DNA from: a virus
Strand: one strand, 5' to 3'
Length of the DNA: 64,000 bases
Virus record (IMG/VR): IMGVR_UViG_3300036851_000176
Location: 82,626-146,625 of that record
The notes beneath the pieces are model-generated. The model did not search any database, was not told the origin of the DNA, and worked only from the letters and a program-made list of their open reading frames with translations. Below are positions 16,131 to 25,043 of this stretch, in pieces (the first letter of the stretch is position 1; each line of letters begins with the position of its first letter). The translations under genes were made by a program, and so were the position numbers.

Positions 16131-16484
16131 ATGATCGACGTGCCCCCTAAGGATCTGACGCGATGCCGCAAAGGTCATCGCAAGGCTCAAACAAGCGGTC
16201 GGTGTCGTCAGTGCAAGCGAGAAGCCGACCTTCGCTATCGCCATTCCGAGAAAGGTAGGGCGCAGAGGGCTGTCTACGAACAAAGCGAGACGGGGAAGAC
16301 TCGCAAGGCTCGTTTTCGATCTACCGAGACCAATGCCGTCATCCAGTCCCGGTACAGTCATTCCGAGAAAGGGCATGCTCGCAGGGCGCGCTACCAACAC
16401 AGCGATAAGGGACACGCGACGGCAAGCAGATTTCAACAGTCTGAGCGGGGGCGAAACATCGCCGCTCGAAATCGACACAAGTAA
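16131..16484 (+). CDS. Basic Zn-finger protein with RYxxSEKG repeats
   Basis: CRKGH...CRQC followed by about six (Y/F)xxS(E/D)KG-like repeats. Confidence 0.6.
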   Translation: MIDVPPKDLTRCRKGHRKAQTSGRCRQCKREADLRYRHSEKGRAQRAVYEQSETGKTRKARFRSTETNAVIQSRYSHSEKGHARRARYQHSDKGHATASRFQQSERGRNIAARNRHK

Positions 16485-16493
16485 GGAGGTCTA

Positions 16494-17618
16494 GTGGCTG
16501 AAACAAGACAGTGCGGTAAGTGTCGAGAAGACAAGCCCGTGACCGACTTCGACGACACGCGAGTGTCCAACGGAGTCAGTCGCAAGTGTGAGGCTTGCTA
16601 CGAAGCAGAGGGCAGAGGCCGACGACCGAACGTCGCCGAGCCAAGCGAGATCGAGAAGTCAACTCTCGAAGCCCTCAAGAAGCTGGGAGATACGGCGTCA
16701 ATCGAAGAGATCGCCGACTACGCCGACATCGCGCCGAAGCGAGTGCGCGAGGCTCTGGAATCCCTTGGGCATCAAGGATTCCGTCTGGAGCACGAGGGAG
16801 ATCACAAGGTTACCCTCCAGAAAGTCCCCCGACCGAGCACCATGGAGCACAAGGTGCTGTTCAAGGGCGAGACCTATCGGTTCGCCATCATCTCCGACGT
16901 ACACCTCAACTCGAAGCACTGCCGACTCGATGAACTCCACATCGCGTATGACATGGTGGCCTCCGAAGGAATCTCCGACGTGTACAACCCGGGAGACATC
17001 GTGGCCGGTCGCGGCATCTTCAAGGGCCAGGACCACGAGATCATCAACCACACGTTCGAGGCACAGAAATCGTTTGCGATCGAGAACTACCCGGTGCGTG
17101 ATGGGGTCACGACCTACATCATCTCCGGGAACCACGACTGCGAAGGCGACTTCGGCAAGGCCGGAGCCGATGCCTGCCTCGGAGTGGCAAACGAGCGCGA
17201 GGACCTGATCTGGGGCGGAATGTATGCCGCCGACTATGTTCTCCCGAACGGAGCCGTGATGACGATGCGGCACCCGATGGGCGGATCGTCCTACGCGAAG
17301 TCGTACAAACCTCAGAAGTTCGCTGAATCGTTCGAGGGCGGCACGAAGCCCGCGATCGTCCTCTTCGGCCACTGGCACAACTTCGAGGTCGGTTTCCACC
17401 GCAACGTGTACATGATCAACTGCGGCACCTTCGAGGGATACGGCGGGACCTTGGGTCTCCGCGTTCCTCTCGGAGCGCCCGCTGTCGGCTTCACGATCGC
17501 CGAAGCAACTCTCGGCGATGACGGATCACTCGTCCGCTTCAAGCACGAGTGGTTCCCGTTCTACGCGGGCCGACGCATGGGCAAAGGAAAGAGCCGTTCC
17601 GGCCGCAAGGCTGCGTAG
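16494..17618 (+). CDS. Zn-finger / HTH / calcineurin-like metallophosphoesterase
   Basis: SDVH, GDIVAG, GNHD, GHWH motifs; N-terminal CxxC pairs and a winged HTH. Confidence 0.85.
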   Translation: MAETRQCGKCREDKPVTDFDDTRVSNGVSRKCEACYEAEGRGRRPNVAEPSEIEKSTLEALKKLGDTASIEEIADYADIAPKRVREALESLGHQGFRLEHEGDHKVTLQKVPRPSTMEHKVLFKGETYRFAIISDVHLNSKHCRLDELHIAYDMVASEGISDVYNPGDIVAGRGIFKGQDHEIINHTFEAQKSFAIENYPVRDGVTTYIISGNHDCEGDFGKAGADACLGVANEREDLIWGGMYAADYVLPNGAVMTMRHPMGGSSYAKSYKPQKFAESFEGGTKPAIVLFGHWHNFEVGFHRNVYMINCGTFEGYGGTLGLRVPLGAPAVGFTIAEATLGDDGSLVRFKHEWFPFYAGRRMGKGKSRSGRKAA

Positions 17619-18016
17619 TGGGCGGTCTATCCATCCCCGACCGGATTCTCAGTGAGGATGCCACCGAAAGGTGGTGTCCTTGCTGTGAGACCTGGAAGTT
17701 GATGGACCGCCAGCACTTCTATGTCGCCTCGAACACGAAAGCAGGATTTCGTCGGACGTGCAAGGCGTGCCAGAAATTGAAAGATGCACGCAATCGACAT
17801 CTCGAATACAACGGGTATGTCTACATGAATAGAGTCCGGCCGTGGCTGCGCGCTCTCGTCGAGAAACTCGGCTTCACCGGTGCAGCCGAAGCCCTCGGCG
17901 TCTGGAAAGGCCAATTGGCCGGATGGATGAGCAAGCGCCGCAGACGTATCCAGCGGCGCAACGCGGCCCGCATTCTCCGCGTGTGCGGAGAGCATGGGAT
18001 TCGCATCGCTGTTTAG
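17618..18016 (+). CDS. Zn-finger plus HTH DNA-binding protein
   Basis: WCPCC...CKAC and AAEALGVWKGQLAGW; GTG overlaps the previous stop. Confidence 0.6.
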   Translation: MGGLSIPDRILSEDATERWCPCCETWKLMDRQHFYVASNTKAGFRRTCKACQKLKDARNRHLEYNGYVYMNRVRPWLRALVEKLGFTGAAEALGVWKGQLAGWMSKRRRRIQRRNAARILRVCGEHGIRIAV

Positions 18017-18088
18017 GCTGGCACGGAAGGAATCGAACCTTCATCACTCGGTTAACAGCCGAGGGTTTTACCGTTAAACTACACGCCA
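18016..18088 (-). tRNA. tRNA-Asn(GTT)
   Basis: Cloverleaf; anticodon arm CTCGG-CTGTTAA-CCGAG; TTCGATT T-loop. Confidence 0.92.
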
Positions 18089-18178
18089 TCGATTTACTGC
18101 TGTCGCAGTAGTTATTTCGTCAAACCGGCCAATTCCCTGGTCCAGGAAATTAGCCTTCGTGCAACGTTTCCGTTCAAA

Positions 18179-18254
18179 TGGGGGGTCGCCAGGGACTTGC
18201 ACCCTGCTCAACCAGAGTCACAGTCTGGGATCTCGCTGCCTAGATTTACGACCC
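18179..18254 (-). tRNA. tRNA-His(GTG)
   Basis: CCAGA-CTGTGAC-TCTGG; C73 and encoded CCA; T-loop TGCAAGT. Confidence 0.88.
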
Positions 18255-18256
18255 AG

Positions 18257-18325
18257 CTGGAGAGGCAGGGGTCGAACCTGCGCTACGAGGTTCAGAGCCT
18301 CGCTGTCTACCATTAACACCCTCCA
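18257..18325 (-). tRNA. tRNA-Gln(CTG), compact D-arm
   Basis: CGAGG-CTCTGAA-CCTCG; TTCGACC T-loop. Confidence 0.85.
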
Positions 18326-18329
18326 ATGT

Positions 18330-18416
18330 AGGGAGACCACTCGCTTCCCACCCCGGCTTGGAGACCCCGGTTTGATGGGGGTTTATCCTCACGGGCCTTA
18401 GCCTTGTCCGTCTCCC
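18330..18416 (-). ncRNA. Unidentified structured RNA within the tRNA operon
   Basis: Closed by the 7-bp stem GGGAGAC/GTCTCCC; starts 2 nt after tRNA-Phe. Confidence 0.5.
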
Positions 18417-18418
18417 AG

Positions 18419-18489
18419 TGGACCGAGAAGGAGTTGAACCTTCACCTCCCGCGCTTCAAGCGGGCGCTCTACCTCTGAGCTACCAGTCC
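18419..18489 (-). tRNA. tRNA-Phe(GAA)
   Basis: CCCGC-TTGAAGC-GCGGG; canonical D and T arms. Confidence 0.92.
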
Positions 18490-18501
18490 ATGTCTTGCTA
18501 G

Positions 18502-18570
18502 CGGGCCAGGAAGGAATCGAACCCTCTCCTAACGGGTTGGAGCCGTTTTGGACACCATGTCCTCTCGCCC
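18502..18570 (-). tRNA. tRNA-Trp(CCA), compact D-arm
   Basis: AACGG-CTCCAAC-CCGTT; G73. Confidence 0.87.
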
Positions 18571-18637
18571 AAGTTGGACGATCGTGCGCACCGGGGGAAT
18601 GCTCTTATCACCGGTGCCCAGTGCGCGCGTCGTCCGA

Positions 18638-18710
18638 TCAGGCTGAGAGGATTCGAACCTCTACCGCTCGCTCCCAAAGCGACCGTGCTGCCGTTGAACA
18701 CTACAGCCTG
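18638..18710 (-). tRNA. tRNA-Pro(TGG)
   Basis: TCGC-TTTGGGA-GCGA; C1-G72, A73. Confidence 0.92.
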
Positions 18711-18783
18711 TTGTGACTGTCTTCGCGGCTCGAACTTCGGTGCTTATGTGATGGTGCTTGAAGAGAGACGCGCAGACAGCGAA

Positions 18784-18846
18784 TTAGACCCCTGGAAACC
18801 AGGGGGTATTCGGCTGATGCTGTTGCGATGTCATCTCGATCTTCAT
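18784..18846 (-). CDS. Putative leader peptide of the Pro-Trp-Phe-Gln-His-Asn tRNA operon (MKIEMTSQQHQPNTPWFPGV)
   Basis: Starts 10 nt after the -10 box; 10 of 11 consecutive codons are Q/H/P/N/W/F; hairpin at 18789-18805. Confidence 0.8.
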   Translation of the reverse strand: MKIEMTSQQHQPNTPWFPGV

Positions 18847-18856
18847 TGCGCCACCA

Positions 18857-18885
18857 ACGTTACATGAATGGTCGTGGTCTGTCAA
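18857..18885 (-). promoter_or_regulatory. Sigma70-type promoter of tRNA operon D
   Basis: TTGACA-17 nt-TAACGT. Confidence 0.8.
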
Positions 18886-19042
18886 GCCGAGGCCGCTTGC
18901 TCAACCGCCAGTTTCCCAAGCGGCTCAGCGAAGCGGCCCAACACAAGGCCGATATTCCCAGTCGCCGCTGACACGGCTCCTGACTGCCTCGGATCCGGTG
19001 TCAGCCGGAGAGCCGAGCGGGCGCTTGCGCCTCGGACACGCT

Positions 19043-19243
19043 TCAAACGTCTGGCATCGAGAGGAAGTCCTGGTAACTCTCCTGCATGTCGGCCAAGCGT
19101 TCCTCGAAAAACTCCCGAATCTCTTCTTCGCTGGCGCGAGGGATCAGAGCAGCAAGGGCATGGTTCATCTCGTCCGCTGCGTACTCTCGTGTTCTGTCGG
19201 GGATCTTCATGATGTGGGGTGGCAGACTATTTGAACGGCTCAT
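19043..19243 (-). CDS. Hypothetical protein (66 aa)
   Basis: RBS GGAGG; lies downstream of the tmRNA. Confidence 0.6.
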   Translation of the reverse strand: MSRSNSLPPHIMKIPDRTREYAADEMNHALAALIPRASEEEIREFFEERLADMQESYQDFLSMPDV

Positions 19244-19338
19244 GTGATGCCTCCGCTTAGCGGCCTGCCAGCGACCTTACGCACTGGTTCTGTTCCCACG
19301 CCAGCGTGCGCCCCGCGCGGCCCCGAAGGGCATTTCAG

Positions 19339-19658
19339 TGGAGCCGCCGGGTATCGAACCCGGGTCCGTCTCGTCCGTACAAACAGATCTTCTAGCAGCT
19401 TCGGGGTGGTATACGCCACCTCCACCAGGGCAGACCTTTGGTCTCCGCGTCACCGTTGAATGGGGTCGGTGTCCCGTCCTACTGGTACATCATCCCGGAC
19501 TTCTGTTCCTACCGGCCGGGGCGGCGCTCGTGGCCGTTAAGCCGCGAGAGGAAGCACGTATGCTTCGTCGTTTCGTTTGCCCTCCGGGCCGGTGCGGTAG
19601 GCCGCAACCCGCTGCGATCTCCTTGCCGTTTTCGAGGCGTCGAATCCAATTCGGCCCC
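19339..19658 (-). ncRNA. ssrA: tmRNA
   Basis: 5' GGGGCCGAATTGGATTCGAC; 3' CCGGG-TTCGATA-CCCGG-CGGCTCCA with G3:U70; internal tag reading ...NDEAYVLPLAA-stop (TAA at 19537-19539). Confidence 0.92.
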
Positions 19659-19665
19659 ACACGGG

Positions 19666-19693
19666 ACTATACACATTCCGGGCGTTTTGTCAA
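19666..19693 (-). promoter_or_regulatory. Promoter of the tmRNA
   Basis: TTGACA-16 nt-TATAGT, 7 nt upstream of the tmRNA 5' end. Confidence 0.8.
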
Positions 19694-19947
19694 CCCACCT
19701 CGCGCCATATCCCTCGTTCGAGGTACCCGTGCCAGCCATCCTTGTTATCGGCCAACTTCTCCAGGATCGATGGAGAGACGGTCACGGTGCCGTCCTGGTG
19801 CTCGGTCACGTCCCATTCTTCGAGACGTGCGGGGCCAGATCCGTTCGGGAGGCAAACCCACAGGAATCTCGATGGGCCTCGGAAACAGTAGTCGCCCGCT
19901 TCGAGTTCCCACGGCAGCGTGTTATCTGGGCGTCGTCGTCCTTTCAT
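19690..19947 (-). CDS. Hypothetical protein (DUF6527-like)
   Basis: TVTVSPSI...WHGYLERGIW motif. Confidence 0.6.
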   Translation of the reverse strand: MKGRRRPDNTLPWELEAGDYCFRGPSRFLWVCLPNGSGPARLEEWDVTEHQDGTVTVSPSILEKLADNKDGWHGYLERGIWREVG

Positions 19948-20149
19948 GTGTTTACCGCAGACGACCCGCGCAAGGCGGGTCGTCGCGAGACTCAGGATCA
20001 CCTCCCCGTTAGAAGGGCCACTCTTCCTGTACGGCCACCGCTACGGGGAGGCCGTTGAGTCTTGCCACGTAGACCACCTCCTTCCTCCAACAAGGTGAGT
20101 CTACCGCAAAGTTTTTGGGCACAAAACATTGCAGTGGTACGCTAAAGGG

Positions 20150-20287
20150 ATGCCAATCGACCCCGAAACTGGACGCTACTGGACGCCGCGCTATCGATCG
20201 AAGTTTGAGGCGGTTCGAACCGTTGCCTCGTGCGTGTCTGCGGTTGGAACGATCTTCGTTCTGCTCAGAGTTTTCGGCAAGATCTAA
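20150..20287 (+). CDS. Small membrane peptide (45 aa), leaderless
   Basis: TACGCT-6 nt-ATG; MPIDPETGRYWTPRYRSKFEAVRTVASCVSAVGTIFVLLRVFGKI. Confidence 0.5.
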   Translation: MPIDPETGRYWTPRYRSKFEAVRTVASCVSAVGTIFVLLRVFGKI

Positions 20288-20288
20288 G

Positions 20289-20373
20289 CGGCGGGTGAGG
20301 GGATCGAACCCCCACAGGTGTTACCCCATCACCGGGTTCAAGCCGGATAAGCACGCCAGCCATGCGACCCGCC
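20289..20373 (-). tRNA. tRNA-Ser(TGA)
   Basis: CCGG-CTTGAAC-CCGG; long variable arm; G73. Confidence 0.85.
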
Positions 20374-20445
20374 GAGTGGACGATGTAACGCATTTTGCGT
20401 CACTCTGTCCATTCAAACCATTCCGCAATCGGAACAATTATGAAA

Positions 20446-20526
20446 TGCGCACCCCGGGATTCGAACCCGGACGCCTCGCGGCACCAGCCTCTCAGACTGG
20501 CGTGTCTACCGTTCCACCAGGCGCGC
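20446..20526 (-). tRNA. tRNA-Leu(GAG)
   Basis: CCAGT-CTGAGAG-GCTGG; long variable arm. Confidence 0.92.
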
Positions 20527-20562
20527 AAGTGTCAAGTTTTATGGCAAGAAAACTTGACAAAG

Positions 20563-20646
20563 CGGAAGGCCGAGGTCACGATCCCCACGCCTTTCGGCGC
20601 GATCCGGCTAGCAACCGGTCCCCGGGCCATCCCAGGTTGACCTTCC
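20563..20646 (-). tRNA. tRNA-Ser(GCT)
   Basis: CCGG-TTGCTAG-CCGG; long variable arm; atypical T-loop ATCGTGA. Confidence 0.83.
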
Positions 20647-20650
20647 GTAG

Positions 20651-20724
20651 TCCCCACGCCAGGATTCGAACCTGGATCCCTCCGGTTTGAGCGGAGTGCG
20701 TCTGCCGGATTGCGCCACGCGGGG
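20651..20724 (-). tRNA. tRNA-Leu(CAA), short variable loop
   Basis: CTCCG-CTCAAAC-CGGAG. Confidence 0.9.
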
Positions 20725-20734
20725 CTATGTCGAG

Positions 20735-20821
20735 TACGGGAGGCGGGAGTCGAACCCGCACGTCCTTTCGGACACCGATTTCTGAGACCGGCGCGTCTAC
20801 CGAGATTCCAGCCACTCCCGT
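20735..20821 (-). tRNA. tRNA-Leu(CAG)
   Basis: CCGGT-CTCAGAA-ATCGG; long variable arm. Confidence 0.92.
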
Positions 20822-20829
20822 ATGTCGAG

Positions 20830-20902
20830 AGCCGATGGCAGGAATCGAACCTGCGTGGACGGGGTTGCAATCCGTCGCCTGGGACCACTCGGCCACATCG
20901 GC
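20830..20902 (-). tRNA. tRNA-Cys(GCA)
   Basis: ACGG-ATTGCAACC-CCGT; U73. Confidence 0.92.
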
Positions 20903-20903
20903 T

Positions 20904-20977
20904 TGGTGGGCGCCCTAGGATTTGCACCTAGTCCTGCGGGGTTACGGCCCGGAATGCTCTAACTACACCAGACGCCC
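20904..20977 (-). tRNA. tRNA-Tyr(GTA), short variable loop
   Basis: CGGG-CCGTAAC-CCCG; ends ACCA; T-loop TGCAAAT. Confidence 0.83.
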
Positions 20978-20984
20978 AAGTAGG

Positions 20985-21041
20985 TCAGTCCGCCGAGGCG
21001 GACTGGCTAAGACTTAGGCAATACAACTGGTGCGCGAACAT
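20985..21041 (-). CDS. Putative leader peptide of the Tyr-Cys-Leu-Ser tRNA operon (MFAHQLYCLSLSQSASAD)
   Basis: Starts 10 nt after the -10 box; LYCLSLS run; hairpin at 20986-21005 overlaps the stop codon. Confidence 0.8.
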   Translation of the reverse strand: MFAHQLYCLSLSQSASAD

Positions 21042-21051
21042 AACGTGCCGG

Positions 21052-21080
21052 AGTATAGACGAAGATTGCTGATTTCGCAA
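21052..21080 (-). promoter_or_regulatory. Sigma70-type promoter of tRNA operon C
   Basis: TTGCGA-17 nt-TATACT. Confidence 0.8.
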
Positions 21081-21303
21081 GTATCTTCTCTACTTGAGCA
21101 ATCAGAGGTACTCGACGTGAAGAGTTCCGCCGAAGGGGAGGGTGCCATCGAAGAGGAACATTCCAAGTTCGTCACCTTGGTAGGCCAGAATCGAGGGTAT
21201 TTTCCTCGCGATCTTCTTGCTCCAGCGCCCACGCCGAGATGATCTTTCCAAGAGGAGGATCCGGAAAGAGGGGACGACCCAGTTCGTCTCGATCGTCGGG
21301 CAC

Positions 21304-21564
21304 TTACTTCGCCTGGAACATCGGCTTCAGCCGAGGTCGCGTCTCTGGCTTAGGGTCTCCCTCGTCCTCTGGGTAATCCACCGGCTGGCCCGAGATGCTG
21401 ATGTCTCCTGTCCCGTTTTCTACAATCCTGTTCACGTTGTATCGGACGCGAAAGTCGTTCGAGTAGACATCGTTGTCGATTTCTAGGGTCTCTCCTTCTC
21501 CCGGAAGCAGCACATACCCAACCGCGAAGACAAAGCAGTTATCCGTGTGGTTCGTGAGGATCAT
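21304..21564 (-). CDS. Hypothetical protein
   Basis: 86 aa ORF directly after the preceding gene. Confidence 0.55.
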   Translation of the reverse strand: MILTNHTDNCFVFAVGYVLLPGEGETLEIDNDVYSNDFRVRYNVNRIVENGTGDISISGQPVDYPEDEGDPKPETRPRLKPMFQAK

Positions 21565-21567
21565 GAC

Positions 21568-21954
21568 TCAGGCCGGGTAAGGAACGATGTTGTACAGGAC
21601 CACCAGAATCCCGCTGGCTACCGATCCTCCCGTCACATGAGCACTGATCTTTCCATCCTCGCTGGCAATGGATTTGATCCCGGATCCGAGTTCCGCCAAA
21701 ACCGCGTAAGACGTGGCCGGAATGGAAGAGCCGGATGTGATCGAGTTGTCGGCTCCGATCCCTACACCCAACGATCCAGATCCAGAGAACGCTTTCAGGA
21801 CGACTACGGTGCTGACGATTGCCCAGCCCTTCGGAATCAGATCTCCGAATTCGTAGGTTCCGGCAGAAAGACCGGGGCGAGCATCGAAGGTGGCGACCTT
21901 TGAGGTTTGTCCACCCTTCATCAGGGCGTAAATCTCTGAAAGGGGAGCAGTCAT
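21568..21954 (-). CDS. Hypothetical beta-rich protein
   Basis: Start moved to MTAPLSE because the track start lies inside tRNA-Thr. Confidence 0.6.
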   Translation of the reverse strand: MTAPLSEIYALMKGGQTSKVATFDARPGLSAGTYEFGDLIPKGWAIVSTVVVLKAFSGSGSLGVGIGADNSITSGSSIPATSYAVLAELGSGIKSIASEDGKISAHVTGGSVASGILVVLYNIVPYPA

Positions 21955-21981
21955 GGTGCGAGTGTACCATGCAAAATCAGG

Positions 21982-22054
21982 AGCCGGGGAGAGGAGTCGA
22001 ACCCCCACCGCAACCGTACAAAGGGTGCATGCTAGCCATTAACACCACCCCGGC
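21982..22054 (-). tRNA. tRNA-Thr(TGT)
   Basis: Anticodon loop TTTGTAC; canonical T arm. Confidence 0.88.
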
Positions 22055-22110
22055 TCGATCGTTCACTGGTGCAAGAAACTACGTTATGACTTAGTTTTCC
22101 GCACCAGTAG

Positions 22111-22183
22111 AGGCCCTAGGAGGATTCGAACCCCCGACTCACGCGGTAGAAACGCGCAGCTCTGTCCCCTGAGCTACAGGGCC
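22111..22183 (-). tRNA. tRNA-Arg(TCT)
   Basis: GCGCG-TTTCTAC-CGCGT; A20. Confidence 0.9.
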
Positions 22184-22213
22184 TTGGTAGTCATTACACG
22201 TACGATGTATCTG

Positions 22214-22304
22214 TCAGGCGCTAGTCTCCCTTGACCACTCCTGCCTCTCGTCCGCTGGTACCCGCTCGCGAGCGCACGCCGGAATCGAACCGGCCGTCTC
22301 CTGA
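22214..22304 (-). ncRNA. Circularly permuted tRNA-like RNA (YrlA/Y RNA-like)
   Basis: Order: closing stem TCAGG, T-arm GCCGG-TTCGATT-CCGGC, looped acceptor-like stem GTGCGCT/AGCGGAC, D-like GAGTGGTCAA, closing CCTGA. Confidence 0.6.
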
Positions 22305-22306
22305 AG

Positions 22307-22378
22307 TGGATCCCCGAGGACTCGAACCCCGATCTCATGGCTTAAAAGGCCAGACTCTGCCTGTTGAGTTAGAGATCC
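22307..22378 (-). tRNA. tRNA-Lys(TTT)
   Basis: TGGC-CTTTTAA-GCCA. Confidence 0.9.
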
Positions 22379-22420
22379 ATGTGCCGCAATTGGAAGGGGA
22401 TGCGGCCAACCGTCTTCGAG

Positions 22421-22493
22421 TGGACCGGCCGAGATTCGAACTCGGATCGCACGCGGTGCAAGCGCGGCAGGTTCCCATTACGCCCACCAGCCC
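22421..22493 (-). tRNA. tRNA-Ala(TGC)
   Basis: CGCG-CTTGCAC-CGCG; G3:U70. Confidence 0.9.
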
Positions 22494-22504
22494 AGGTGTT
22501 GCTA

Positions 22505-22579
22505 TCGGCCGAGGAGGATTCGAACCTCCGACTGACACGGGTTCGAAGCCCGCCGCTCTGTCCACTGAGCTACCAGCCG
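22505..22579 (-). tRNA. tRNA-Arg(TCG)
   Basis: GCGGG-CTTCGAA-CCCGT; A20. Confidence 0.88.
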
Positions 22580-22587
22580 TTATGTAG

Positions 22588-22660
22588 TGCGGCGAGCAAG
22601 AGTCGAACTTGCGTCCTCCGGGTTCGCAACCCGGCGCTCTGTCCTCTGAGCTATCGTCGC
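22588..22660 (-). tRNA. tRNA-Arg(GCG)
   Basis: CCGGG-TTGCGAA-CCCGG; A20. Confidence 0.88.
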
Positions 22661-22709
22661 GCGTGTCATGCAATACACGTTTTTCATGTACAACGTGACA
22701 GTCTTGCAG

Positions 22710-22782
22710 TGGCGCCCCGAGGACTTGCACCCCGTTCGCGCGGCTTAAGAGGCCGGACTCTGGCTCGTTGAGTTAGAGCGCC
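22710..22782 (-). tRNA. tRNA-Lys(CTT)
   Basis: CGGC-CTCTTAA-GCCG; T-loop TGCAAGT. Confidence 0.85.
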
Positions 22783-22790
22783 ATATGTAG

Positions 22791-22861
22791 TAGGCATCCA
22801 GAGACTTGAACTCCGATCTCCTGGGTGTAGGCCAGGTGTCCTCCCATTGGACGAGACGCCT
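22791..22861 (-). tRNA. tRNA-Val(TAC)
   Basis: CCTGG-CCTACAC-CCAGG. Confidence 0.88.
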
Positions 22862-22874
22862 ATGTTGTTTCGAG

Positions 22875-22947
22875 TGGACCGGGGAGCGATCGAATCTCCC
22901 GCCTCTCCTTTATCAGAGGAGCGCTCTGCCGTCTGAGCTACCAGTCC
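22875..22947 (-). tRNA. tRNA-Ile(GAT)
   Basis: CTCCT-CTGATAA-AGGAG. Confidence 0.92.
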
Positions 22948-22968
22948 ATGTTCCGTGCTGGACTGCGG

Positions 22969-23064
22969 CTATGCGACGGTAATGCGCGTCGCGGCCAGCA
23001 CGGTGCGGACGACGGTTCTCGTCGTTCGCTTGAGTTTCCTCTGTGCTGTCCGCGTGAAGTTCAT
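22969..23064 (-). CDS. Putative leader peptide of the Ile-Val-Lys-Arg-Ala-Thr tRNA operon (MNFTRTAQRKLKRTTRTVVRTVLAATRITVA)
   Basis: Leaderless ATG 7 nt after the -10 box; 25 of 30 non-start codons are T/R/A/V/K/I; hairpin at 22953-23003. Confidence 0.85.
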   Translation of the reverse strand: MNFTRTAQRKLKRTTRTVVRTVLAATRITVA

Positions 23065-23071
23065 GATCGTG

Positions 23072-23099
23072 ACCTTAGCAGGTTTCGAGAAAAAGTCAA
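23072..23099 (-). promoter_or_regulatory. Promoter of tRNA operon B
   Basis: TTGACT-16 nt-TAAGGT with TGn extended -10. Confidence 0.75.
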
Positions 23100-23100
23100 G

Positions 23101-23173
23101 AGCCACCGATCGGATTTGAACCGATCCTACAACGTTGGCAACGTTGCGTGCTACCGCTAGACACTACGGTGGC
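23101..23173 (-). tRNA. tRNA-Gly(GCC)
   Basis: CAACG-TTGCCAA-CGTTG; U73. Confidence 0.92.
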
Positions 23174-23176
23174 AAA

Positions 23177-23272
23177 TGGAGAGCCTAGGTCCTCAGTTAT
23201 TCCCCGCCGGGGAGGACTCCACGGCATCACTCCTAAGAGTGGCGGGCCAGATGTCTCCGATGTCAACTCTCC
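23177..23272 (-). ncRNA. Unidentified structured RNA between the two Gly tRNAs
   Basis: Closing stem GGAGAGTT/GGCTCTCC plus A; internal hairpins CACTC-TTAG-GAGTG and GTCCTC/GAGGAC. Confidence 0.45.
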
Positions 23273-23302
23273 TGGGAGACCCACGGTCTTTGGTTTTTCC
23301 AG

Positions 23303-23376
23303 AGCGCCTGCTCGGATTCGAACCGAGACTGCCAGCTTGGAAGGCTGGCGTGCTGACCGTTAAACACTACGGGCGC
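23303..23376 (-). tRNA. tRNA-Gly(TCC)
   Basis: CCAGC-CTTCCAA-GCTGG; U73. Confidence 0.92.
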
Positions 23377-23404
23377 GTGCTTGCCATGGTACCTGAAACG
23401 AGAG

Positions 23405-23476
23405 CGGGTCTACGGAGGATCGAACTCCGATCTGTGCCTCGACAGGGCACCGTCCTAGCCATTGAACGACAGACCC
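23405..23476 (-). tRNA. tRNA-Asp(GTC)
   Basis: GTGCC-CTGTCGA-GGCAC; G73. Confidence 0.92.
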
Positions 23477-23569
23477 AAGGATGAGGAGTGAGCGGTGCAA
23501 ATCGACCACCCTCATCAGCAACTCCTGTCCGGATGCATCCCCGGCTCAGGTCAGCAGCGTCCTACTGAG

Positions 23570-23643
23570 TGTCCCGACCGGGATTCGAACCCGGGTCGCC
23601 GCCGTGAGAGGGCGGTATCCTAGACCAACTAGACGATCAGGAC
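23570..23643 (-). tRNA. tRNA-Glu(CTC)
   Basis: CCGCC-CTCTCAC-GGCGG. Confidence 0.92.
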
Positions 23644-23695
23644 GTATCGGGGTTCTTCATCTCCGGGCCTGAACCCGAAGCGAGTGCTACCCCAG

Positions 23696-23769
23696 TGCCA
23701 CCGGCGGGATTCGAACCCGCATCGCCGAGCTTGAAAGGCTCGCATCCTAAGCCATTAGACGACGTTGGC
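23696..23769 (-). tRNA. tRNA-Glu(TTC)
   Basis: CGAGC-CTTTCAA-GCTCG. Confidence 0.92.
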
Positions 23770-24057
23770 AAGTCCCCTTGCGGGGAGCGCCCAGTCCGCT
23801 TGCCCTCTACCGGGGGCCGACCGGGCAATGATTGAGGCACCTGCGGGCCGTGCCTCCCTGCGCCCTCCGGAGAATCCATGAGGCTGCGAGCGGTGGAGAG
23901 TCGATCGCGCCTGGGATGTCAATTCGGGAGGGTCATGACTCCCTCCCGACCTGGCCGTCGCCAGGATTTCAGTGTTGCTCCGTCGAGCACCCCTCGGCCC
24001 GGACAACCGCCGGGACGGAAACGCGAGAGGCCACTGTCTCCGGGTTTCCCCTTCGAG

Positions 24058-24130
24058 TAGCGGGTACGGGAGTCGAACCCGCTGTCTTCGGCTTATGAGG
24101 CCGCTGTGGAAGCCGTTTCACTCCCCCGCT
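24058..24130 (-). tRNA. tRNA-Met(CAT), elongator type (Ile2 not excluded)
   Basis: CGGC-CTCATAA-GCCG; paired 1-72. Confidence 0.83.
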
Positions 24131-24136
24131 CGTCGG

Positions 24137-24164
24137 AGTATACATGCCGGAGATGGCATGTCAA
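24137..24164 (-). promoter_or_regulatory. Promoter of tRNA operon A (Met-Glu-Glu-Asp-Gly-Gly)
   Basis: TTGACA-16 nt-TATACT, 6 nt upstream of tRNA-Met; no leader ORF. Confidence 0.85.
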
Positions 24165-24168
24165 GGGC

Positions 24169-24537
24169 TTACTTGCAGTTCTGTGGATCGACCGCCTGGA
24201 CGTTCTCCGGCTTCACGACTCCGTTGGGGATCTGAAACAGGAAGTCTCCACAGGCCGACTGACTTCCGTCTGCGTTCGACACGACGGCCAGGCACTCGAA
24301 GCGAATGGAGTTCTTGGGATCCTGAGCACACTTCACGATGCGCGCGATCTGGATTCCTTCGGCTGCCTCGGCCTTGTTGAAGTCTCGCTTCAGCGCGATC
24401 CCGGCTTTCTGCGTCACCGTCAGGGGTTTCGGCTTGGGCTTCGAGTCACCGCCCGTCGTCAAGACGATCGCGGCAACAACGGCAGCTACTACGACCACGG
24501 CGAGTACGGCGTAACTGACGATCTGGTTGCGCTTCAT
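24169..24537 (-). CDS. Membrane-anchored / exported protein
   Basis: N-terminal TM helix; four Cys. Confidence 0.7.
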   Translation of the reverse strand: MKRNQIVSYAVLAVVVVAAVVAAIVLTTGGDSKPKPKPLTVTQKAGIALKRDFNKAEAAEGIQIARIVKCAQDPKNSIRFECLAVVSNADGSQSACGDFLFQIPNGVVKPENVQAVDPQNCK

Positions 24538-25043
24538 GGCTTTCCTTTCTCTTGAGGGATAGGTGGCGGCAATGCGTAAAAGACGAACTTACCGGGCTTG
24601 TTCGACCGTCCCGATCTATGAACCGCTACCGGAGCGGCTCCTTGTTGCCGACTCTGCGTGGTTGCTTCGACACACTGCTTATGCAAGTCACGGTCGTACG
24701 GCAATTTGTACCCTCGCGGCTCGTCCGGGATCGACGAATACCCAAACGGACTTGCGTAATGCTTCTGCGGAATGAGCCAGAGATAGATCGCTCCGGTGCT
24801 GGGATCGGATTGGTCCTGTGGTTCGACGACATGACAACCCGCGAAAATGCTCTTCCTTGGCGGCTCGTTCGGAGTCGGCCATCCCGTGCCAGTGACTCTA
24901 TAGTGGATCACAGTGAAATTGAGGCCGACGACGACCAGGATGGCGGCAAGTTTCAGCCCCCAGTACCCCCATCCCTTTGCACAAATCGCCCAGAGCAGAA
25001 TCGCGTCTAGGATCGTCAGGGAGAGAAAGAGGCTAGAGATCAC
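24534..25043 (-). CDS. Two-TM membrane protein (third gene of the MotA-like cassette)
   Basis: Two N-terminal TM segments, then GWPT, IYLW and EPRGYKLPYDRDLH. Confidence 0.7.
   Translation of the reverse strand: MISSLFLSLTILDAILLWAICAKGWGYWGLKLAAILVVVGLNFTVIHYRVTGTGWPTPNEPPRKSIFAGCHVVEPQDQSDPSTGAIYLWLIPQKHYASPFGYSSIPDEPRGYKLPYDRDLHKQCVEATTQSRQQGAAPVAVHRSGRSNKPGKFVFYALPPPIPQEKGKP

Follow-up and report, generated by a model that had tools for sequence, protein, structure and literature searches.

Leader-peptide attenuation is classical for amino acid operons and for pheST, and tRNA genes are usually treated as constitutive or as controlled by growth rate. We analyzed a 64,000-nucleotide (nt) stretch of phage DNA (the window), the last 64 kb of the 146,625-bp IMG/VR virus record IMGVR_UViG_3300036851_000176, which comes from a soil metagenome. 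On the minus strand of the window a short open reading frame (ORF), here called leader D, lies between a promoter and six tRNA genes (operon D) and is rich in codons for the six amino acids that those tRNAs carry. The best explanation, which we hold to be probable but well short of certain, is that leader D is a translated cis-acting leader that senses the six tRNAs and gates operon D through a switch between two RNA folds. We found no paper on a ribosome-read leader frame that controls tRNA genes.

The closest described systems include the multivalent attenuators of enterobacteria: the thr leader with its Thr and Ile codons, the ilvGMEDA leader with Ile, Leu, and Val codons, and pheM, the leader of pheST. 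Leader D shares with them a short ORF placed after the promoter and before the genes under control, a cluster of codons for the very molecules whose supply is at issue, and mutually exclusive RNA folds that overlap the ORF, which here are predicted. pheM also provides a precedent for regulated cargo that belongs to the translation apparatus, as is proposed for the phage tRNA genes. Unlike the enterobacterial cargo of enzymes, the cargo here consists of tRNA genes, and six amino acids are represented within 11 codons. The phage leader also differs in being, as predicted, leaderless or nearly so, with no Shine-Dalgarno sequence and no hairpin-plus-U-tract terminator, and in that its second fold arm abuts a tRNA.

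In mycobacteria, leaderless short ORFs encoding polycysteine are Cys-responsive attenuators, in which an unusually stable duplex forms between the ORF RNA and the downstream leader, and ribosome arrest is proposed to open the duplex (bioRxiv 10.1101/834739). As in those systems, a short ORF, by its predicted start of the actinobacterial leaderless type, stands first on a polycistronic transcript, with the sensed codons near its 3' end. The polycysteine system frees a Shine-Dalgarno sequence, controls the translation of a protein gene, and senses one amino acid (bioRxiv 10.1101/834739). In contrast, the gene next to leader D is a tRNA gene, with no Shine-Dalgarno sequence to hide, and six amino acids are sampled. 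Leader D would be a high-GC, probably leaderless variant of leader-peptide sensing that does without the classical terminator.

Rho and translated upstream ORFs shape conditional termination in Mycobacterium tuberculosis (bioRxiv 10.1101/2022.06.01.494293). As in the Rho-dependent tna operon (TnaC) and the M. tuberculosis upstream ORFs, leader D is directly followed by a C-rich, G-poor stretch, and as in tna-type control a ribosome near the stop codon would set the accessibility of that stretch. Unlike in those systems, what points to Rho in the phage is composition and fold. Two sister leaders in the same array (leaders B and C) and the D leader of a related phage (L068) are without a C-rich tract, unlike tna-type leaders. 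T-box riboswitches sense tRNA status in cis in Gram-positive bacteria, as the proposed sensor would, but they act without translation, by direct binding of one uncharged tRNA, and their targets are synthetase or amino acid genes. A search with Rfam models returned no T-box or other cis-regulator at the gathering threshold, only tRNA and transfer-messenger RNA (tmRNA) matches, and the weak subthreshold matches at an E value of up to 1 were to unrelated families, none of them the T-box.

Leader D and its operon

Operon D (18016 to 18710, minus strand) carries tRNA-Pro(tgg), Trp(cca), Phe(gaa), Gln(ctg), His(gtg), and Asn(gtt), the outer genes being tRNA-Pro at 18710 to 18638 and tRNA-Asn at 18088 to 18016. 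The original prediction described a promoter, TTGACA-17-TAACGT, followed by an ORF at 18846 to 18784, and we located each of these elements on the minus strand as described. The -35 hexamer TTGACA occupies 18880 to 18885, and the -10 hexamer TAACGT (18857 to 18862) follows it by 17 nt and precedes the ATG by 10 nt. The leader ORF, MKIEMTSQQHQPNTPWFPGV, has 20 codons plus TAA (18784 to 18846, minus strand), with its ATG at 18846 and its stop codon at 18786 to 18784. The same order of promoter (18885 to 18857), ORF (18846 to 18784), and tRNA-Pro (18710) is found in two related phages, L071 and L068. Both have an identical -35 hexamer, and in L071 five of the six positions of the -10 hexamer are identical as well. 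The distance from the -10 hexamer to the ATG is 10 nt in the window and in L071 and 9 nt in L068. At the promoters of tRNA-Met and tmRNA in the same array, the mature 5' end lies 7 to 8 nt past the -10 hexamer, a spacing from which the operon D transcript is predicted to start about 3 nt before the ATG. An in-frame GTG stands at the expected +1 position of the D leader in both L071 and L068. Leader D is thus predicted to be leaderless or nearly so, and it has no Shine-Dalgarno sequence.

The whole tRNA array (24164 to 18016, all minus strand) has 27 or 28 tRNA genes and a tmRNA gene and covers all 20 amino acids. It is split into transcription units, each behind a TTGACA/TANNNT promoter: Met, then Glu-Glu-Asp-Gly-Gly; operon B (Ile Val Lys Arg Arg Ala Lys Arg Thr); operon C (Tyr Cys Leu Leu Leu Ser); tmRNA; and operon D.

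Leaders match the amino acids of their own operons

The cognate-codon tract of leader D, QQHQPNtPWFP (18793 to 18825, minus strand), is present as it was first read: 10 of the 11 consecutive codons CAA CAG CAT CAG CCG AAT acc CCC TGG TTT CCA (18825 to 18793) specify the six amino acids of operon D. Short frames are common in GC-rich DNA, and the initial search was done by eye, as would suit an untranslated open frame in a structured 5' leader that matches by chance. However, among all stop-free windows of 11 codons in the six frames of the 146,625-bp genome, only 11 hold at least 10 codons for Pro, Trp, Phe, Gln, His, or Asn. Ten of these are poly-proline tracts, and the sole other is the core of leader D, QQHQPNTPWFP, which is therefore unique genome-wide.

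Two further leaders in the array behave in the same way. Leader C, MFAHQLYCLSLSQSASAD (20985 to 21041, minus strand), has the core LYCLSLS and precedes Tyr, Cys, three Leu, and Ser genes. Leader B, MNFTRTAQRKLKRTTRTVVRTVLAATRITVA (22969 to 23064, minus strand), is a 31-codon leaderless ORF before the operon B tRNAs, and 25 of 30 codons encode Thr, Arg, Ala, Val, Lys, or Ile. In a local-score test of each leader against random genome segments of equal length, the P values for a leader's own tRNA set were about 0.008 for D, 0.0005 for B, and 0.007 for C, and none of the three matched the tRNA set of any other operon significantly. In an unsupervised scan, the set that fitted best was likewise the complete operon in each of B, C, and D (for D, all six tRNAs); nothing was found before internal tRNAs or before the Glu/Asp/Gly unit. 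The significance of three leaders for their own sets only, together with the uniqueness of the D core and the synonymous-only core changes and in-frame insertions or deletions seen in two relatives (see below), makes a chance origin highly improbable.

A degenerate tRNA-like element with a GCT (Ser) anticodon arm lies within operon C between Leu(caa) and Leu(gag) (20562 to 20632, minus strand); it is not called by Rfam, and L071 has a normal tRNA-Ser(gct) at that position. If the element were functional, the AGT and AGC codons of leader C would gain a cognate tRNA.

A comparable arrangement occurs in the cultured and unrelated Cellulophaga phage phi38:1, in which a promoter-proximal mini-ORF enriched in the amino acids of its block stands before each tRNA block: YNNFSWYSNCSFSSYN before Tyr-Ser-Ser-Asn-Phe and LLHQEPLEQLRLP before Pro-Glu-Gln-His-Leu-Arg. 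In phi38:1 the leaders are followed by canonical hairpin-plus-U-run terminators. No such terminator follows the leaders of the high-GC phage, in which a hairpin lies across the stop codon or beside it. The leaders of the two phages have no sequence homology. The grouping of the tRNA blocks is alike in phi38:1 (L062, 35250 to 38800, plus strand) and the window (18016 to 24130), with Ile/Val/Lys/Arg/Thr, Tyr/Cys/Ser, and Pro/Gln/His together in each, and the phi38:1 leaders begin MKT.M while the D leader of the window begins MKIEM.

Conservation of the leaders in related phages

The phage record is 95% complete with a G+C content of 59%, and it has no close cultured relative: its capsid protein is at most 33% identical to those of cultured phages (tblastn), and the best matches are Arthrobacter phages. 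Among sequencing runs, the stretch was found only in the soil metagenome that is its probable source, and no run of RNA was listed with it. Relatives were found by querying a large protein collection with the capsid protein and the neighboring phosphoesterase. L071 is a JGI contig with a phosphoesterase 80% identical to that of the window and the whole tRNA array in nearly the same order. L068 (also L063), a 146,274-bp contig from an NCBI metagenome, has a capsid protein with 69% identity. Both have all six operon D tRNAs behind homologous leaders, and both keep leaders B and C.

The D leader of L071, MKIETTQQHQPNTPWFPGI, differs from the core of leader D by four substitutions (CAT to CAC, CCG to CCC, ACC to ACT, and TTT to TTC), all of them synonymous, an outcome with a probability of about 0.0006 to 0.002 under random substitution. 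The single insertion or deletion is of 3 nt and in frame, and both amino acid changes fall at noncognate positions. The ORF is identical at 53 of 60 nt, compared with 6 of 17 in the spacer between the -35 and -10 hexamers and 18 of 35 in the loop of a hairpin downstream of the ORF (hairpin 2, see below); the six operon D tRNA genes are only 64 to 85% identical. The alternative start at 18834 that had been considered for leader D is ACA in L071, leaving 18846 as the conserved start.

In leader C the cognate positions are kept, or changed synonymously (TTG to CTG) or within the set (CTA Leu to TCG Ser), and four of the eight noncognate positions differ. Against L071, leader B shows several in-frame insertions or deletions that leave both ORFs with exactly 31 codons, and in an alignment read by eye seven of the eight replaced cognate residues stay in the Ile/Val/Lys/Arg/Ala/Thr set.

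L068 has a more divergent version of the locus. Its operon D, Pro-Trp-Gln-Phe-His-Asn, lies behind TTGACA/TAGGGT, and its D leader, MTQQPQTRQPFSWHQPNQPQG, is rearranged such that only the block CATCAGCCGAAT is shared with the leader of the window. The composition is kept nevertheless, with 15 of 20 codons cognate and all six amino acids present (P = 0.0017). The original prediction had also held that the codon order mirrors the order of the tRNA genes. This idea does not survive the comparison with L068, in which the leader reads ..QPFSWHQPN.. before genes in the order Pro-Trp-Gln-Phe-His-Asn, and the collinearity in the window is probably a coincidence.

The match of leader D to operon D is thus real, retained in two related phages with synonymous changes alone in the core. 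Because the core changes only synonymously, the insertions and deletions are in frame, and replacements stay within the set, selection appears from these alignments to act on the reading frame and the amino acid composition rather than on the peptide sequence, which is what a decoding sensor predicts. This pattern of evolution suggests that leader D is translated and gives strong support to its reading as a sensor. A functional peptide could likewise account for purifying selection on the D core, and RNase P would release each leader as a small RNA with a 3' hairpin, so that the small ORFs might encode micropeptides or have another role unrelated to the downstream tRNAs, the match in composition having some other cause. 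However, one genome then encodes three different peptides that each match the tRNAs of their own operon only, the D leader of L068 is rearranged with its composition kept, leader B diverges freely within its set, and the same match between leader and tRNAs recurs in the unrelated phi38:1. We consider such a role very unlikely.

Several other features of the related genomes were observed. The B-type leader of L068 (7577 to 7660, plus strand) lies upstream of Gly-Gly-Ile-Lys-Arg-Ala-Arg-Thr-Arg and has two Gly codons, whereas the B leader of the window lies after the Gly tRNAs and has none; leader and cargo may covary here, in a sample too small for a test. The L068 leader also has a Shine-Dalgarno-like GGGGG in place of a leaderless start. 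In a further relative, L066 (300 to 1560, plus strand), the homologous Pro-Trp-Gln-Phe-Asn block is broken by HNH endonuclease-like ORFs with CxxCH motifs, one of which extends exactly up to tRNA-Pro, and there is neither a leader nor a tRNA-His gene. The tRNA array of the distant relative L027 has a 476-nt gap (16370 to 16840, plus strand), which contains a long, structured, G+C-rich stretch that could be another RNA gene.

Other searches returned no additional leaders. The array and tmRNA matched cultured phages at single tRNAs only (megablast and blastn), with no relatives among them; the 878-amino-acid scaffold protein found only distant relatives in IMG/VR, with arrays that had no convincing leaders; and no homologue was found of the protein embedded in the array (21954 to 21568). 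The exact hairpin pattern gave six chance matches, none with tRNAs, and a codon-degenerate leader pattern gave none in IMG/VR and JGI metagenomes. Some of the further homologous contigs have no array or an incomplete one.

Predicted RNA folds of leader D

The codons for Pro-Trp-Phe-Pro-Gly form a hairpin, CCCCUGG-UUU-CCAGGGG (hairpin 1; 18789 to 18805, minus strand; -13 kcal/mol). It had been proposed that this hairpin, CCCCTGG-TTT-CCAGGGG at the DNA level, arises from the PWFP codons themselves and that the position of the ribosome directly controls its folding. The hairpin is present at 18805 to 18789 as a perfect 7-bp stem and is conserved, with one compensatory pair change: the outermost pair is C-G in the window and U-A in L071, through ACC to ACT and GTC to ATC. 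This compensatory change explains the Val-to-Ile replacement in the D leader of L071. L068 has an analogous hairpin, GCCAGC-CCUUUA-GCUGGC, whose loop contains the Phe codon and whose stem contains the Trp codon. An influence of the ribosome on hairpin 1 would be expected from geometry. Because hairpin 1 lies inside the ORF, a ribosome on about 6 to 7 of the 10 cognate codons would have to hold it open.

Each of the nine leaders in the three genomes ends in a stable hairpin, which lies across the stop codon or directly beside it, and the hairpin across the stop codon of leader C covaries. These hairpins stop 3 to 12 nt before the first tRNA, although the D leaders of the window and L071 have hairpin 2 in between. 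The placement at the stop codon would also suit a translated sensor of the opposite sign, an operon-specific stringent control in which stalling lets the hairpin at the end of the ORF form and read-through or maturation falls, so that the phage stops making tRNAs that could not be charged anyway. A ribosome that reached the stop codon would open the hairpin, and an early stall, at the first two Gln codons of leader D, would leave it closed. Negative stringent control is the classical regime of host tRNA genes. We nevertheless consider a response in this direction unlikely. The leader hairpins have no U-tracts and similar hairpins inside the operons do not end them, most of the cognate codons of leader D lie within or just before hairpin 1, so that by geometry stalling would open it, and the leaders of phi38:1 have the classical layout, in which stalling favors read-through.

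Two alternative folds are predicted to link the ORF with the region downstream. In state X, the 5' part of the ORF (region 1; 18819 to 18845, minus strand) pairs with a segment after the stop codon (region 3; 18759 to 18780, minus strand) through the helices UGAAGA:UCUUCA, GAGAUG:CGUCUC, CGCA:UGCG, and ACAGC:GCUGU, and this pairing encloses hairpin 1. State X is the RNAalifold consensus of the window and L071, and all 14 of its pairs are kept, one by a change from U-G to C-G. The noncognate codons ATG AAG ATC GAG are identical in L071 at 12 of 12 nt, and CTGCGCGTCTCTCTTC in region 3 is invariant between the two, both of which fit with the pairing in state X. In state Y, region 3 is instead the 5' arm of hairpin 2, a long stem-loop (18716 to 18780, minus strand) in which its partner is 18728 to 18716, and which ends 5 nt before tRNA-Pro without a U-tract. 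When the window sequence was folded with tRNA-Pro, states X and Y were nearly equal in energy (-70.1 versus -69.9 kcal/mol). The support for two exclusive folds comes from conservation and a few covarying pairs in two sequences. The outer helix of hairpin 2 is CUGUCU:AGACAG in the window and GCGCU:AGCGC in L071, a covariation read from the alignment by eye; none of the folds of the L071 sequence returned this helix. ARAGORN at a low threshold found no tRNA on that strand at hairpin 2, and the idea that hairpin 2 is a degenerate tRNA was dropped.

A C-rich, G-poor tract of 40 nt (18736 to 18775, minus strand), with 15 C and 6 G, lies mostly in the loop of hairpin 2. Its counterpart in L071 contains 19 C and 5 G, a bias that ranks among the top 0.3% of windows of the genome. 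From its composition, the tract may be considered a candidate Rho loading site.

Proposed mechanism and its output

In the mechanism that we favor, translation of leader D would start at the 5' end of the transcript or about 3 nt after it, and the time that the ribosome takes to cross the ORF would track the supply of charged Pro, Trp, Phe, Gln, His, and Asn tRNAs. In a leader free of ribosomes, 18845 to 18819 would pair with 18780 to 18759 around hairpin 1 (state X), leaving about 50 nt of C-rich RNA before tRNA-Pro single-stranded. This would expose a loading site for Rho, or for an RNase, and output would be lowered. A ribosome held on the cognate codons would occupy region 1 and hairpin 1, and the freed segment after the stop codon would then close hairpin 2 (18780 to 18716) around the C-rich tract (state Y), so that RNA polymerase would continue into the six tRNA genes. 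Operon D would thus be made more when its cognate codons are read slowly, for example, when host tRNAs are depleted. Operons B and C carry leaders of this kind, each matched to its own tRNAs. We infer how output would respond, and Rho-dependent control of read-through is our best guess for the output.

Several observations weigh against this mechanism. No hairpin-plus-U-tract terminator was found on the sense strand between leader D and tRNA-Pro or between any leader and its tRNAs. A consensus terminator scan of 17500 to 24700 found one sense-strand site, at 17604 to 17592, downstream of the array; hairpins 1 and 2 are followed by UCUAAUUCG and ACAA, respectively. The scan is able to find such sites in this array, as it detected terminators on the antisense strand. 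Hairpin 2 resembles the hairpins in every inter-tRNA spacer and may be in part a processing element rather than an arm of a switch. As a hairpin occurs in every such spacer, hairpins without U-tracts evidently do not end transcription here. State X is upheld mainly by sequence conservation, with just one compatible change, and the excess of C over G in leader D of the window is modest (15 C and 6 G). Such a tract is absent from leaders B and C, so that Rho cannot serve as the output in general; the idea that every leader has a strong signature for Rho loading was dropped. The D leader of L068 has neither hairpin 2 nor the spacer that would hold it. Pairing of a leader with the 5' end of its own first tRNA ranks as ordinary among pairings with other tRNAs, and that of leader D with tRNA-Pro is weaker than with most other tRNAs, so that a specific interaction of this kind was also dropped. 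The distant relatives L027, L054, and L051 have tRNA arrays without detectable leaders.

A further such point concerns the codons themselves. The leaders are not enriched for codons read by the phage anticodons under standard wobble (for leader D, 8 observed and 8.1 expected), and the CAA codon of leader D has no phage tRNA. Codon usage is as expected from synonymous choice, and matching at the anticodon level was rejected. The match is to amino acids, not to isoacceptors, and the sensor, if it is one, reports amino acid families with the host tRNAs included.

The lack of a canonical terminator bears on another possibility, that the translated leader acts after transcription. A ribosome near the 5' end might shield the precursor from RNases that depend on the 5' end (RNase J or RNase E), or alter the access of RNase P, so that the yield of mature tRNA changes with no termination event. 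The ORF starts at or near the 5' end of the transcript, and the leader hairpins end 3 to 12 nt before the first tRNA, much as the spacer hairpins do before the other tRNAs. Stalled ribosomes are known to stabilize mRNA in Gram-positive bacteria at ermC-type leaders. On the other hand, tRNA processing is generally fast, internal tRNAs that follow the same hairpins must mature normally, and specific pairing of leader and tRNA is not supported. An effect of this type would also be confined largely to the first tRNA, although the codons of the leader cover all six amino acids. Posttranscriptional action is therefore an improbable account of leader D.

The spacer hairpins form a feature of their own. 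In every inter-tRNA spacer (for example, 18571 to 18637, 18326 to 18417, and 18089 to 18178, minus strand) a strong hairpin stops about 5 nt short of the following tRNA, and the linkers after the hairpins have the form xACxU (AACUU, UACAU, AACAU). They look like an array-wide signal for processing or insulation.

The terminators on the opposite strand are of the hairpin-plus-T-run type and lie antisense to the array at 18094 to 18112, 18365 to 18380, 20520 to 20533, 22661 to 22680, 23005 to 23029, and 23275 to 23291 (plus strand). One site is antisense to the hairpin within leader B. Transcription converging on the array from the plus-strand genes that end at 18016 would be halted at these sites.

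Two promoters in the array are placed very close to the RNAs that they serve. The tRNA-Met promoter, TTGACA-16-TATACT (24130 to 24164, minus strand), fires 7 nt before the first base of the tRNA, which would then be made without a 5' leader and would not need the RNase P cut. The tmRNA gene (19336 to 19693, minus strand), between operons C and D, has its own promoter, TTGACA-16-TATAGT, from whose position transcription should start at the mature 5' end. The predicted tmRNA tag, ETTKHTCFLSRLNGHERRPGR, does not resemble the usual tags of the ANDENYALAA type, and the prediction may be wrong.

Implications

Leader D and its sister leaders add evolutionary evidence for translation to the study of such loci, in the form of synonymous-only change, in-frame insertions and deletions, and replacement within the set, and they provide three homologous genomes in which predictions can be tested. 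We suggest tentatively, with somewhat more doubt than confidence, that diverse phages gate blocks of tRNA genes with multi-amino-acid leaders, in which the ribosome reports which tRNAs are scarce and the phage makes those, and that in the high-GC lineage studied here this takes the form not of an intrinsic terminator but of a two-state fold coupled to Rho or to RNA processing. Such a gating system could be a countermeasure to host defenses that deplete tRNAs or to host shutoff.

If this is true, phages carry a demand-driven supply of tRNAs. It would bear on why phages encode tRNAs and how they cope with host anticodon nucleases and shutoff, and on the sensing of six amino acids at once by a leader peptide.

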